This document shows, one piece after another, positions 5,855 to 11,780 of a stretch of 29,493 bases of DNA. Numbering within the stretch: the first letter of the stretch is position 1; each line of letters begins with the position of its first letter. Source of the stretch: a virus (lineage: Duplodnaviria > Caudoviricetes); IMG/VR virus record IMGVR_UViG_3300030376_001264, positions 1-29,493 of that record; one strand, given 5' to 3'. Made by a program: the position numbers and the translations under genes. The notes below the pieces were generated by a model. It did not search any database. It had not been told where the DNA came from and saw only the letters and a list, made by a program, of their open reading frames with translations.

Positions 5855-6211
5855 ATGCACACACCAATTTATTCAAGCGAAGAACATAGGTTGATAGTTG
5901 AGTCATACATTACAATGTGCAAACAGTTTACAGAAGAGGTCGCATCCCAAGCAAGGTACAAGAATTATTTAGAGGTTATTGATTTAATAGTAGAATATTC
6001 AAACGGATATGGTGAAGGGGTAAGAGAAAACAATTTTTACGACTGGATAGTAATCTTACCAATTAACATCTCAGTTGCAACAAGTGGCTTTTATGCAGGA
6101 ATAGAAACAAAAACAAACTCAGCAGTTATACGAGCATACAAGGTGGTCTTAGAACAATTACTGACCGAGACCGTAACAAGACTTGATGAGATAGAACCTG
6201 ACAATGACTGA
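5855..6211 (+). CDS. Hypothetical protein
   Basis: 118-aa ORF overlapping the start of the sigma-like gene. Confidence 0.75.
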   Translation: MHTPIYSSEEHRLIVESYITMCKQFTEEVASQARYKNYLEVIDLIVEYSNGYGEGVRENNFYDWIVILPINISVATSGFYAGIETKTNSAVIRAYKVVLEQLLTETVTRLDEIEPDND

Positions 6212-6791
6212 TATTTATATTGAAATATCAAAGCTAACAGATAAGTTCAGGACTATGGCTTATCGCTTTACAAATGATGAAAACAAAGTAAATGAGGCAG
6301 TTCAAGAGCTTATGCTTTATTTTTTACAGCAAATGAATCCTGATACACTAAGAAGTGTATATGAAAAAGATGGTGTTGAAGGATTGACAAGGTATGGTGC
6401 TGTCGCATTAAGAAGGTCTTTAACAAGTAAGCGTAGCAATTTTTATTATAAGTATGGAAAATATTATACCCACATAGATGAATTTACAAGCACGATTACT
6501 TATGATGTGATTGAAACTGGAGAGGTTATCCCAAACAAGCATCTTTATAATTTACCTAATGAAGATGAAGACGTAAATCACAATAATACTTTATACAAAT
6601 TAGAATTAATCGACGTAGAGCTTGATAAATTAGAATCTTGGTACGATCGTGAATTATTTAAGCTCTATTATTATGATGGCAATACTCTCGATTCACTTGC
6701 TGATAAGACTGGTATAAGCAGAAATAGTATATTTACAACAATAGACAAAGTAAGAACAATTTTAAAAAAAGAATTAAATGAAGATGTATAA
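6204..6791 (+). CDS. ECF/sigma-70-like RNA polymerase sigma factor
   Basis: Region-2-like AYRFT...EAVQELMLYFL and region-4 HTH LDKLESWYDRELFKLYYYDGNTLDSLADKTGISRNSIFTTIDKVRTILK; about 195 aa. Confidence 0.75.
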   Translation: MTDIYIEISKLTDKFRTMAYRFTNDENKVNEAVQELMLYFLQQMNPDTLRSVYEKDGVEGLTRYGAVALRRSLTSKRSNFYYKYGKYYTHIDEFTSTITYDVIETGEVIPNKHLYNLPNEDEDVNHNNTLYKLELIDVELDKLESWYDRELFKLYYYDGNTLDSLADKTGISRNSIFTTIDKVRTILKKELNEDV

Positions 6792-7805: not shown

Positions 7806-8543
7806 ATGAAACAACAAGTTAAGCTGTACAAAATCAAGGGCAACCCTAATAACCCTAGAATAATAAAGAATGATAAGTTTAAAAAGCTAGTCAAGTCTAT
7901 TAAAGAGTTTCCACAGATGCTAGAAAAAAGACCAATAGTAGTTGATGAAGACATGATGGTTCTTGGTGGCAATATGAGGTTAAAGGCAAGTAAAGATGCA
8001 GGGTTAAAAGAAGTATGGATTGACATAGCAGAGGGGTGGACAAAAGAACAGAAAGATGAGTTTGTAGTAAAAGACAATGTAAACTTTGGTGATTGGGAAT
8101 GGGATATATTAGCTAATGAGTGGGATAGTGTTCAACTTTCTGAATGGGGTTTAGATGTGTGGGAAAACCATGATGATACAATTGTTGAAGATGACAATAT
8201 ATATACAAGAAAAATAGAAGCACCAACTTATGAGCCTAAAAATGAAAAGCCTAAGCCAAATGAGCTATATGAAACTAAAAAGGCTGAAGAGTTAATTGAA
8301 AAAATAAAATCATTAAAGCTAAATAAAACAGAAGAGGCATTTTTAATATATGCAGCATATAGGCATACAGTATTTGATTATAGCAAGATAGCAGACTTTT
8401 ATGCTCATTCAAATAAGGAAGTTCAAGAGCTTATGGAAGACTCAGCTTTAGTTATAATAGATTTTGATAAGGCTATTGAAAAAGGATATGTAAAACTTAC
8501 AAAGGATATTGCAGCAGCTTATGAAAAGAATGGCATATTATGA
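7806..8543 (+). CDS. ParB/Sulfiredoxin N-terminal domain protein
   Basis: NPNNPRII...FKKLVKSIKEFPQMLEKRPIVVDEDMMVLGGNMRLKA; separate C-terminal domain (RHTVFDYSKIADFYAH...LVIIDF). Confidence 0.88.
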   Translation: MKQQVKLYKIKGNPNNPRIIKNDKFKKLVKSIKEFPQMLEKRPIVVDEDMMVLGGNMRLKASKDAGLKEVWIDIAEGWTKEQKDEFVVKDNVNFGDWEWDILANEWDSVQLSEWGLDVWENHDDTIVEDDNIYTRKIEAPTYEPKNEKPKPNELYETKKAEELIEKIKSLKLNKTEEAFLIYAAYRHTVFDYSKIADFYAHSNKEVQELMEDSALVIIDFDKAIEKGYVKLTKDIAAAYEKNGIL

Positions 8544-9406
8544 TAAAAGAAGATTTTACAGTTTTTATTTTAACGCATGGAAGACCAAACAATGTTAAAA
8601 CATACAAGACTCTTAAAAGATTTGGTTACACTGGTAAAATACATATTGTCATAGATAATGAAGATAATTGTGCTAATGATTATTATAAAAATTTTGACAA
8701 TGTTGTTATGTTTGACAAAAAAGAAATTGCTAAAACATTTGATGAAGCTGACAATTTTAATGACAGAAGGTCAATTGTTTATGCAAGAAATGCCTGTTTT
8801 GATATTGCTAAAAAATTAGGGATTAAATACTTTGTTCAATTTGATGATGATTATACTGATTTTAGTTATAGGTTTAATGGACAGCTTTCTTACAATAAAG
8901 GAAGGGGTTATATTAATAATGTAGACGACATATTTAAAGCAATATTAAAATATTATAAATCAATACCTGCAAAGTCAATAGCAATATCACAAAACGGAGA
9001 TTGGATAGGAGGTGAAAATAGCAATTGGGCTAAAGAGCTTAGACTTAAAAGAAAATGTATGAACAGTTTTTTTTGCAGCACAGAAAGACCATTTCAATTT
9101 ACAGGTAGAATAAATGAAGATGTAAACACCTATACAAGTGGTGCAAGTAAAGGGCATTTGTTTTTAACTATTCCAAACGTATCTTTAAAACAAACAGACA
9201 CGCAGTCAAATAATGGTGGAATGTCAGATATTTATGCTGCACAAGGAACATATATAAAATCTTTTTACTCAGTTATGTTTAGTCCTTCAGCTGTAAAGGT
9301 TGCAATGTTAAACACTGAGAGGTCAAGACTACATCATAGAGTAAGTTGGAATAATGCAACACCAATGATACTAAATGAAAAACACAAGAAAAATGGAACA
9401 AAATAG
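8540..9406 (+). CDS. GT-A fold glycosyltransferase, TAGT/GREB1-like (putative DNA-modifying)
   Basis: FILTHGRP, ARNACFDIA, QFDDDY (DxD), INEDVNTY, GGMSD, RLHHRVSW; located between ParB and terS. Confidence 0.72.
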   Translation: MIKEDFTVFILTHGRPNNVKTYKTLKRFGYTGKIHIVIDNEDNCANDYYKNFDNVVMFDKKEIAKTFDEADNFNDRRSIVYARNACFDIAKKLGIKYFVQFDDDYTDFSYRFNGQLSYNKGRGYINNVDDIFKAILKYYKSIPAKSIAISQNGDWIGGENSNWAKELRLKRKCMNSFFCSTERPFQFTGRINEDVNTYTSGASKGHLFLTIPNVSLKQTDTQSNNGGMSDIYAAQGTYIKSFYSVMFSPSAVKVAMLNTERSRLHHRVSWNNATPMILNEKHKKNGTK

Positions 9407-9731
9407 AACAAAGATCAACAAAGAGAGATTGCTAAAAGCATTAGAGTCAAGTCTAGGAGTAATTACTACAGCCCTAAAAGCAACAGACCTGTCAAGGACT
9501 AACTTTTACAAATGGCTTAAAGAAGATGAAGAGTTTGCAGCTAAAGTAGAACAGATTGAAAACATACAGAAAGATTTTATAAAGTCTAAGTATTATGAAT
9601 GTGTAAAAGACAAAGTACCTTCTGTTGTTATACACGCTGCTAAAACTCAATTAGGTTGGAATGAAACAAACAAAGTAGACCTGACATCAAAAGATGATAA
9701 GATAAAAATCAATATAAATCTTGGAGATTAA
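9393..9731 (+). CDS. terS: Terminase small subunit (HTH)
   Basis: LLKALESSLGVITTALKATDLSRTNFYKWLKEDEEF HTH; immediately upstream of terL. Confidence 0.75.
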   Translation: MEQNRTKINKERLLKALESSLGVITTALKATDLSRTNFYKWLKEDEEFAAKVEQIENIQKDFIKSKYYECVKDKVPSVVIHAAKTQLGWNETNKVDLTSKDDKIKININLGD

Positions 9732-11031
9732 TCCTGAATTTACTAAGACTCAAAAAGAGTGTTTAAAATACTTGCTTGACAATAAGACAACAGAAGTATT
9801 GTTTGGTGGTGCAGCAGGTGGTGGTAAGTCTTGGGTTGGTGTAAGCTATTTGATCTTAATGTGTATTGAATACCCAAGAACTAGATACTTAATGGGAAGG
9901 TCAAAGCTAGATGCTTTAAAAAAGACAACACTAAATACTTTCTTTGAAGTTTGTACAGCTTGGAATCTAAAAGCTATTAAGGATTACACCTTTAATGGCT
10001 CAAGCAATGTCATAACTTTTTTTAATGGCTCAGAGATAATACTAAAAGACTTATTCTTATATCCATCAGATAGAAACTTTGACAGCTTAGGTTCTTTAGA
10101 AATAACAGGTGCTTTTATTGATGAAGCAAATCAAATAACAGAAAAGGCAAAGAATGTTGTTGCATCAAGATTAAGATATAAGTTAGATGAAAACAACTTA
10201 ATCCCTAAAATGTTAATGACTTGCAACCCTGCTAAGAACTGGGTTTATACTGAGTACTACAGACCTGCTAAAGATGGCACTATAAAACCTTATAGAAAGT
10301 TTATACAAAGTTTAGTTGGTGATAATGCATATATATCAAAGCATTATGAGAAACAATTATTTGAACTAGATGAGTTAAGCAAACAAAGACTTTTATTTGG
10401 TAATTGGGAGTATGATGCAACCAATGACAGCTTAATACAATATGATGCAATATTAAATATGTTTAATCAACAAGGTGTTGAAGGAGATAAATACATAAGT
10501 TGTGATGTAGCGCGATTTGGTGCTGATAGAACAGTTATAATGGTTTGGGAAGGGTTACACCTTAGAAAGATACAAACGTTGCTTAAATCGTCTGTAAATG
10601 AGGTTGTGGAGGCTGTTAAGGTATTACAACAAGAGTATCAAGTTAATTTAAGAAATATAATAGTTGATGAGGATGGTGTGGGTGGTGGTGTTAAAGACTA
10701 TTTAAGATGTCAAGGTTTTGTCAATAATGCAAGGGCTTTAAAAAATGAGAACTATCAAAACTTAAAAACTCAATGTTATTATAAATTAGCTGACTTAATT
10801 AATAAAGCACAAATAGGTATAAGCTGTTCAGATGTTAATGTAAAGAATCAGATGATTGAAGAGTGTGAGCAAGTTAGAACTAAGGATGCTGATAAGGACA
10901 ACAAGCTACAGATAATACCAAAAGACAATGTGAAGGCTATACTAGGCAGGTCACCAGATTATTCAGATGCATTAGCAATGAGAATGTATTATGAGATTGA
11001 TGGTAATTTTGGAAAGTATTATGTGCAATAA
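9721..11031 (+). CDS. terL: Terminase large subunit
   Basis: Walker A GGAAGGGKS, Walker B FIDEA, coupling motif TCNP, nuclease motifs CDVARFGAD and SPDYSDA; TTG start. Confidence 0.95.
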   Translation: MEINPEFTKTQKECLKYLLDNKTTEVLFGGAAGGGKSWVGVSYLILMCIEYPRTRYLMGRSKLDALKKTTLNTFFEVCTAWNLKAIKDYTFNGSSNVITFFNGSEIILKDLFLYPSDRNFDSLGSLEITGAFIDEANQITEKAKNVVASRLRYKLDENNLIPKMLMTCNPAKNWVYTEYYRPAKDGTIKPYRKFIQSLVGDNAYISKHYEKQLFELDELSKQRLLFGNWEYDATNDSLIQYDAILNMFNQQGVEGDKYISCDVARFGADRTVIMVWEGLHLRKIQTLLKSSVNEVVEAVKVLQQEYQVNLRNIIVDEDGVGGGVKDYLRCQGFVNNARALKNENYQNLKTQCYYKLADLINKAQIGISCSDVNVKNQMIEECEQVRTKDADKDNKLQIIPKDNVKAILGRSPDYSDALAMRMYYEIDGNFGKYYVQ

Positions 11032-11122
11032 AAAAGGGTAGCAGGATGAAAGAAGATAAATTGAATAGAACTAAAAAAATAGAATGACCTGCTACCCTTC
11101 AAAAGTAAAATGAATACAAACT
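11030..11122 (-). ncRNA. Putative ~90-nt antisense-strand small RNA with a 12-bp stem and U-tail
   Basis: Perfect inverted repeat AAGGGTAGCAGG (11034-11045)/CCTGCTACCCTT (11088-11099), 42-nt loop, U6 tail on the minus strand, and an upstream minus-strand promoter. Confidence 0.55.
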
Positions 11123-11127
11123 AGGCG

Positions 11128-11135
11128 CAAATATA
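11128..11135 (-). promoter_or_regulatory. Bacteroidota -7 promoter element TATATTTG on the minus strand
   Basis: The + strand reads CAAATATA; TTG triplets lie 18 and 21 nt further upstream on the minus strand as a -33 candidate. Confidence 0.65.
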
Positions 11136-11141
11136 CACTAT

Positions 11142-11171
11142 TAAACTAAATAACAACAATTTCTATATATA
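11142..11171 (+). promoter_or_regulatory. Putative phage late promoter, copy 2
   Basis: TAAAC (11142)...TCTATATATA (11162); ATG at 11178. Confidence 0.6.
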
Positions 11172-11177
11172 TAATAT

Positions 11178-11780
11178 ATGAAGGTTAACATAAAGAAGAA
11201 AGGCAAGAAGAAAGAGTATAAATTAATCAGTAGTTGGACAGACGTCACATTAGAAAAGTGGCTAAAACTGGTTAGTTTAAAGACAGGATCAAAAACAAAA
11301 GAAGCGAGAGAAACAATATCAACCCTTTCTGATATTCCAAAAAATGTCATTGATCAATTGGAATTAAAAGATGTGGCATATATAATGGGGAAGATTGCTG
11401 ACCTACAAAAGAATGAGGATAGTTCTTTAAAAAGAGTGATTGAAATAGAAGGGAAACGATATGGTTTTCACCCTGACTTAGATAGTATTACGTTAGGTGA
11501 GTATGCAGATATTGAGAACTTTATAAAGAATGACATTCAAAAGAATTTACCTGAGTTGATGTCGGTTCTTTATAGACCGATTGTAGAAGAAACAAGTAGT
11601 GGGGTTTATACTATAGAAGCCTATGATGGCAATATAAGTATAAGGGCAGAGCAAATGAAAAAGATGGCAATAGAGCAAGTGCAAAGTGCACTGGTTTTTT
11701 TTTATCATTTCGCACAGGTATTATTAATGATTTTGCAATCGTTTTTGATTCGCAAGCAGACGGGAATGATAAAGCAATAG
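11178..11780 (+). CDS. Putative tail assembly chaperone (short form)
   Basis: First gene of the tail cluster; contains a T9 slippery run at 11695-11703 with an open -1 frame behind it. Confidence 0.65.
   Translation: MKVNIKKKGKKKEYKLISSWTDVTLEKWLKLVSLKTGSKTKEARETISTLSDIPKNVIDQLELKDVAYIMGKIADLQKNEDSSLKRVIEIEGKRYGFHPDLDSITLGEYADIENFIKNDIQKNLPELMSVLYRPIVEETSSGVYTIEAYDGNISIRAEQMKKMAIEQVQSALVFFYHFAQVLLMILQSFLIRKQTGMIKQ

Follow-up and report, generated by a model that had tools for sequence, protein, structure and literature searches.

A putative minus-strand small RNA cassette beside terL may restrain early translation in a marine Bacteroidota-type phage

We have analysed a 29,493-nucleotide stretch of DNA (the window), which represents a complete circular phage genome (29.4 kb, with a 98-nt end repeat). 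Between the end of terL and a late promoter it carries a minus-strand unit which, judged by its sequence, is a member of a family of optional promoter-leader-terminator cassettes in ~29-kb marine Bacteroidota-type phages. Across this family, the predicted 5' leader tracks the 5' untranslated region (5'UTR) of the phage's own first early gene. We consider it fairly probable that the unit specifies a small RNA of ~90 nt which would act as a brake on the phage's own early translation. The comparison with relatives supports part of the original prediction: the unit is a candidate small RNA gene with a promoter of the host type, a terminator on the minus strand and a 5' segment directed against start codons.

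The unit and its genome setting

All the open reading frames treated as genes in the window lie on the plus strand, and the features relevant here are collected in Table 1. The minus-strand -7 box, the perfect 12-bp stem and the 42-nt loop are all present where the original prediction had placed them, and the overlap of the small-RNA promoter with the late-promoter motif is borne out as well. The U6 tail also exists, but it is not independent of the stem. It begins with two U's that also form the final two pairs of the 12-bp stem, and stem and tail had thus been partly counted twice.

Table 1 Features of the candidate small RNA unit and of the genes and promoters related to it in the window
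Feature	Position	Strand	Basis or remark
-7 promoter box TATATTTG, Bacteroidota sigma-A type	11128-11135	minus	sequence; predicted start near 11123-11121
U-rich 5' leader (putative seed), predicted single-stranded, complementary to gene 1579 start region	11100-11123	minus	unpaired in fold
Terminator stem, 5' arm	11088-11099	minus	fold and sequence
Pyrimidine-rich loop, 42 nt, optional	11046-11087	minus	without identified target
Terminator stem, 3' arm	11034-11045	minus	fold and sequence; perfect 12 bp with 11088-11099
U6 tail, overlapping terL stop and last two stem pairs	11030-11035	minus	sequence
terL, terminase large subunit, convergent on the unit	9721-11031	plus	PHROG 2, E 8e-33; 54% to Flavobacterium phage 11b
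Late promoter motif (TAAACTAAA ... TTTCTATATATA), back-to-back with small-RNA promoter	11142-11171	plus	putative role
Sigma-factor-like gene, candidate reader of late promoter	6204-6791	plus	phrog_1740, E 1e-6
Early -7 box	1544-1551	plus	opens early operon
First early gene, 76 aa	1579-1809	plus	predicted target with its 5'UTR (region 1544-1593)

The minus strand of the unit folds with -21.1 kcal/mol (z = -5.9), and 0 of 200 shuffled sequences folded as well; a hairpin is also possible on the plus strand, at -19.3 kcal/mol. The -7 box, which occupies positions -12 to -5 as described in PMC9723704, is by itself common, with 26 TANNTTTG sites on the minus strand of the window, and therefore the case for the unit rests on its relatives. 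When the window was scanned for the combination of box, hairpin and U-run, this unit and one weaker match within the capsid gene were the only results. A generic terminator scan found none, because it allowed only loops of 3-8 nt.

The identity of terL with that of Flavobacterium phage 11b points to a Bacteroidota host. Searching GTDB genomes with terL gave no host genome but two loci, in an archaeal MAG and an Arcobacteraceae MAG, which were taken as mis-binned; a plasmid search gave no marine host. The second box of the late motif also precedes genes 7806, 21612, 22360 and 24787. The motif may be read by the product of the sigma-factor-like gene, which is matched in all 37 related records. 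The early operon continues after gene 1579 with Rad52-like, DUF3127, replication and sigma-like genes. The first early protein itself has no Pfam or PHROG family, and matches only unnamed clusters (score 0.84), which is a lead at most. Elsewhere in the window, a ParB-like gene followed by a glucosyltransferase-like gene (7806-9406; the latter phrog_842, E 5e-72) suggests a DNA-modification module, and a T-run starts at 11695, near the end of gene 11178-11780.

A family of optional cassettes at the terL/late-promoter junction

We have examined what follows the terL stop in 82 loci: the 80 best of the 336 terL relatives and, in addition, two loci repeated from contigs of this set. In 46 of them terL runs directly into the late-promoter motif, while 29 contain a short insert (23 distinct), six a longer insert, and one is cut off. 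As more than half of the loci are without the unit, the cassette must be dispensable. All 23 distinct short inserts, which had been chosen by terL only, contain by eye a hairpin flanked by an A-run towards terL, and the -7 box pointing into them, again by eye, is perfect in 19 and has one mismatch in four.

A second scan used the promoter and the late motif only and was blind to ATG. It covered at least 119 of an estimated 180 loci, 118 of the 119 being at the terL end, and yielded 91 distinct units of 44-106 nt (median 61) which fall into 44 clusters. At least four U's within the 8 nt after the stem are seen in 78 of the 91 units. At the stricter level of at least five of eight, U-runs follow the stem on the minus strand in 69/91 units and on the plus strand in 15/91, counts in which three tandem units are mis-parsed. 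These numbers bear on another reading, in which the region is a terminator for terL only, or a convergent promoter that interferes in cis with terL or the late promoter. It would fit the hairpin on the plus strand and the overlap of the promoters. However, the U tails dominate on the minus strand, 46 of 82 loci do without a hairpin, the RNA end coincides with the terL stop, and the co-variation of the leader described below is left unexplained. Thus the fallback that the original prediction had allowed, only a bidirectional terminator, is disfavoured, and we regard this whole reading as highly improbable.

The leaders of the 91 units are 51% U, and CAU occurs in 54 of them, compared with 26.3+-3.4 in dinucleotide shuffles; among the cluster representatives the corresponding numbers are 25/44 and 12.8+-2.3. 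In leaders without CAU, UUAGUU is common (36/91 vs. 11.5 expected). The comparison with relatives that had been proposed at the outset holds for the promoter, for the pairing stem and for CAU, the last being enriched in the 5' leaders, but the first ATG of the loop is not conserved. Stems vary freely between units yet still pair. In four close variants, two of the 12 stem pairs are changed on both sides, a small sample for which 51 of 500 shuffles reach the same. One 22-nt leader is found only inside the cassette in 22 of 22 contigs, with several unrelated stems, its invariance being by construction of the search. In addition, four runs of one study contain contigs with near-identical, short-loop and empty forms side by side. 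In six empty phages a scan for the unit at other places in the genome found none, but it also missed many true cassettes.

Several other arrangements have been observed at this junction and elsewhere in the related phages. Minus-strand ORFs of 77 and 74 aa occupy the slot in L034:2585-2950 and in L081 and L086:4303-4657, without Pfam match; they lie behind an apparent copy of the early-promoter region, which suggests that the junction accommodates accessory genes for early expression. Longer inserts of 449 and 335 nt (L019:4303-4751, L020:2229-2677, L055:2189-2523) have a minus-strand -7 box without any ATG ORF of at least 36 aa, and are possibly longer non-coding RNAs. In L097, L126, L176 and L201 a second shared element of ~45 nt lies between the unit's terminator and terL. 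Rfam gave no match in L019, L055, L097 or L126. A second minus-strand promoter-hairpin unit stands back-to-back with the start of a terS-like gene in L337 (G017) and L368 (G032), while in L317 (G007) and L356 (G026) the early promoter is followed by a long non-coding leader, apparently with structure, before the first early gene begins; this is possibly an attenuator or an RNA insert. Finally, the window-type unit is found behind two unrelated C-terminal types of terL (L002 vs. L005, L130, L145), which indicates that terL and the cassette are exchanged independently.

The leader tracks the 5'UTR of the first early gene

The leader of the window unit agrees with the start region of gene 1579 (1570-1591) at 20 of 23 positions, and the duplex has an energy of -14.2 kcal/mol. 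The original prediction could not match its ATG-containing strings to the phage's own gene starts, and this was mistaken for the 5' string. As a single-genome match it has p=0.32, and it is not significant alone since the pooled best-target tests are negative: with CAU-fixed shuffles, 0 of 21 phages were better at p<=0.05. The best start in this set lay upstream of the cassette in 19/21, and was often that of the first early gene. An earlier pooled test, which compared the best duplex over all upstream starts between cognate and other phages, gave a quantile of 0.42 (p=0.10, n=18).

The signal appears when leaders and first genes are compared across phages. The set comprises 31 near-complete cassette-bearing records and the window, and six empty records were also read. 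The first early gene was defined by a mechanical rule, written after the records had been viewed: going on from the phosphoesterase gene, the first TANNTTTG box with an ATG at a distance of 14-44 nt past it marks the gene. The rule gave a gene in 24 of the 32 cassette phages, including the window; two are without the region and six failed the rule. Against the first-gene start, the cognate leader shows an excess of 3.48 kcal/mol and a longest match longer by 2.0 nt (p=5e-5, n=24). Reducing each unit cluster to a single phage (n=17) gives p=2e-4 in 10 of 10 draws. The excess is 3.71 when the six rule failures are added back (n=30), and 3.67 (p=5e-5) for 16 contigs that were unseen when the idea arose, although one of these, G009, is closely similar to a contig that had been seen. 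Across 29 control gene families the same test gave at most 0.85 kcal/mol, three of them with nominal p<0.05 on one of the two measures, and the control segments gave -0.11 (sense copy), -0.07 (hairpin part) and 0.77 (reversed leader). Among disjoint nearest-relative pairs, 9 of 12 are better by energy (p=0.07), and by longest match nine are better, two tied and one worse.

The first gene is in the top three of the phage's own starts in 15 of 24 cases with the cognate leader, compared with 15% with other leaders. The window pair ranks second of 24 both ways, while in G012, G014 and G017 the first gene ranks only 20th-24th by energy. Exact shared words reach 13 nt in G004, G005, G013 and G019, and 12 nt in G023, G029 and G032. 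The co-variation signal is 2.26 for the 5'UTR and 0.0 for the coding part. As the first genes belong to 12 protein families among 30 phages, it is the tag that is tracked, not the protein. In G004, G005, G019 and G020 the leading early genes have a common tag, and the seed matches each of them. The start of the annealing-protein gene co-varies too (excess 3.05, p=1e-4, n=26), this gene having been picked after viewing G002. The matches concentrate at -17 to +5, and cover the positions at which Bacteroidota initiation is described to need A's (-3, -6, and -11 to -15) in place of a Shine-Dalgarno sequence (PMC7366714, PMC11697453).

The shared motif might instead act as DNA, namely as a protein-binding site behind both sigma-A promoters, or be a recombination copy, without any role in RNA pairing. 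The leader and the early UTR are indeed direct repeats on the plus strand, a Rad52-like annealing protein is among the phage's gene products, mismatches show no preference for G-U pairs (6 vs. 10 of 65), and the signal is confined to the UTR. On the other hand, a terminator would be superfluous for an operator, whereas the units do end in a hairpin and a minus-strand U tail, and the motif is reversed in orientation relative to the two promoters; as tracts of conversion, bulged matches of 8-14 nt would also be short. We therefore hold a DNA-level explanation to be very unlikely, and prefer pairing of the putative RNA with the early leader.

The long loop and the question of host targets

The original prediction saw in the unit several guide segments that block host mRNAs, such as those of defence genes; outer-membrane transporters, as with FopS, would be another possibility. 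FopS and GibS are described to act in this manner (PMC11697453, PMC7366714). The leaders do resemble generic Bacteroidota start regions, and 16 of 18 beat shuffles with pooled phage starts. The long loop of the window is 89% conserved, along with the rest of the unit, in four close variants, yet without a target among the phage's own genes: its longest match to own starts is 10 nt, compared with a mean of 10.5 in other phages, and no excess was found in 19 extracted loop or inner-hairpin segments. For this reason, and since the long loop is absent from most family members (a hairpin span of at least 35 nt is seen in 20 of 91 units), the claim of several guide segments is not supported. Host targets would also leave unexplained why the leader follows the UTR of the first gene of the phage itself. 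A metagenome scan for exact 19-nt matches, although weak and uncontrolled, gave 51 of them, i.e., seven cassettes and 44 others; at 12 of these the match might be a start in an unrelated ORF, and no target family recurred. Overall, we consider it quite unlikely that host mRNAs are the targets of the unit, although it may act on them as a side activity.

The loop may nevertheless hold a second seed. Its first ATG is absent in three aligned relatives and kept in the metagenome variant L406. We have also considered the loop as a plus-strand ORF of 13 codons, which exists only in the window variant and in L423, identical in the stretch shown, and rejected it as it is not conserved among relatives. 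An ACGACAA-like word is common to several long loops.

Proposed mechanism and significance

According to the reading we prefer, a brake on the phage's own early translation, host RNA polymerase would transcribe the ~90-nt RNA from the minus strand, and the unpaired 5' end of this RNA would pair in the cell with the mRNA of the first early gene, over its 5'UTR and start codon. Such pairing would block ribosome loading on this gene and so damp early translation. Polarity on the early operon may follow, as sRNA-blocked translation is described to be able to trigger Rho polarity (PMC12360218). The small-RNA and early promoters would both fire at entry, with the RNA accumulating and then shutting down the first gene or genes; later, late transcription from the overlapping promoter might occlude the small-RNA promoter and switch the RNA off. 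One seed could cover several leading early genes with a common leader tag, often the single-strand-annealing gene too.

Pairing of the same kind could have another payoff, namely that the RNA acts mainly on related phages that arrive later or keeps the genome quiet in a carrier state. It would then be an immunity factor made of RNA only, with variants of the seed setting the exclusion groups. The diversity of seeds (44 clusters in 91 units), the patchy presence, and the empty and variant forms in the assemblies of one study would fit an arms race among kin, and the window leader pairs with the first gene of G003 (-14.7) equally well as with its own. C4 is described to play such a role (PMC5320573). 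However, no integrase or repressor is named among the 28 proteins scanned in the window, a resident lytic genome would silence itself simultaneously, and the seed diversity could follow drift of the early leaders. That exclusion of kin is the main function is thus unlikely in our opinion.

A broader proposal, which we put forward quite tentatively and would not expect to hold in full, is that of a swappable, RNA-only repressor cassette widespread in small marine Bacteroidota phages. In this proposal, an RNA of 45-105 nt with a hypervariable seed matched to the early-leader tag would provide both early shut-off and sequence-coded kin exclusion, and its silencing by the overlapping late promoter would make an early-late or lysis-carrier switch without a protein repressor. 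For the study of early-gene shut-off and kin exclusion in these phages, the cassette would offer a minimal device with dozens of natural seed-target pairs that change together. It would also extend anti-start regulation of the FopS/GibS type to phage genomes, and the terL/late-promoter junction would be a slot for early-expressed accessory units.

Comparison with known RNAs

No Rfam family matches the window at the gathering score. The FopS model (RF04319) gives no match at E<=10 in 10900-11300, while the same model does match B. thetaiotaomicron. We have found no description of such a cassette in print, within a searched literature that excluded most subscription papers.

In some respects the unit resembles C4 of P1/P7, which is described as a phage RNA whose short unpaired stretches pair with the ribosome-loading region of an mRNA of its own phage, with a target-specific sequence that differs between related phages (PMC5320573, PMC8201110). 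Unlike the unit, C4 folds into three stem-loops, is released by RNase P, acts through two loops, and serves antirepressor control in a temperate phage-plasmid (PMC5320573, PMC8201110). The unit has a single hairpin without the three-stem-loop fold and without a match to the Rfam C4 model. It shares with C4 the complementarity to an mRNA leader of its own phage, which co-varies between phages. It differs in being optional, and in having one 5' arm plus a terminator, its own promoter, and a variable first early gene as the predicted target. This layout suggests a primary transcript rather than an RNase P product.

The target of P22 Sar is overlapped with full complementarity. Sar and lambda OOP are, like the unit, small phage RNAs (68-77 nt) that repress one gene of their own phage, Sar by blocking translation initiation; OOP, in contrast to the unit, is fully complementary to its target and overlaps it (PMC12197685). 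The unit ends at the terL stop, 9.5 kb away from its predicted target, and its pairing is imperfect.

The layout itself is closest to that of FopS and GibS of Bacteroides thetaiotaomicron, which are described to have a single-stranded 5' seed and an intrinsic terminator (with a sigma-A promoter for FopS), and to repress by pairing of the 5' end over translation-initiation regions without Shine-Dalgarno sequences (PMC11697453, PMC7366714). By sequence and folding, the unit has the same sigma-A promoter, single-stranded 5' stretch and Rho-independent terminator. FopS in addition carries a conserved R1 seed, represses susC-type mRNAs of the host and binds RbpB. FopS and GibS differ in that they are encoded by the host, have a conserved seed, and target transporters or enzymes of the host (PMC11697453, PMC7366714), whereas the unit is encoded by the phage and its seed is hypervariable, following the early leader of the same phage. 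Overall, the unit likely works like P1 C4 or P22 Sar, with a layout of the FopS/GibS type, while belonging to neither family.
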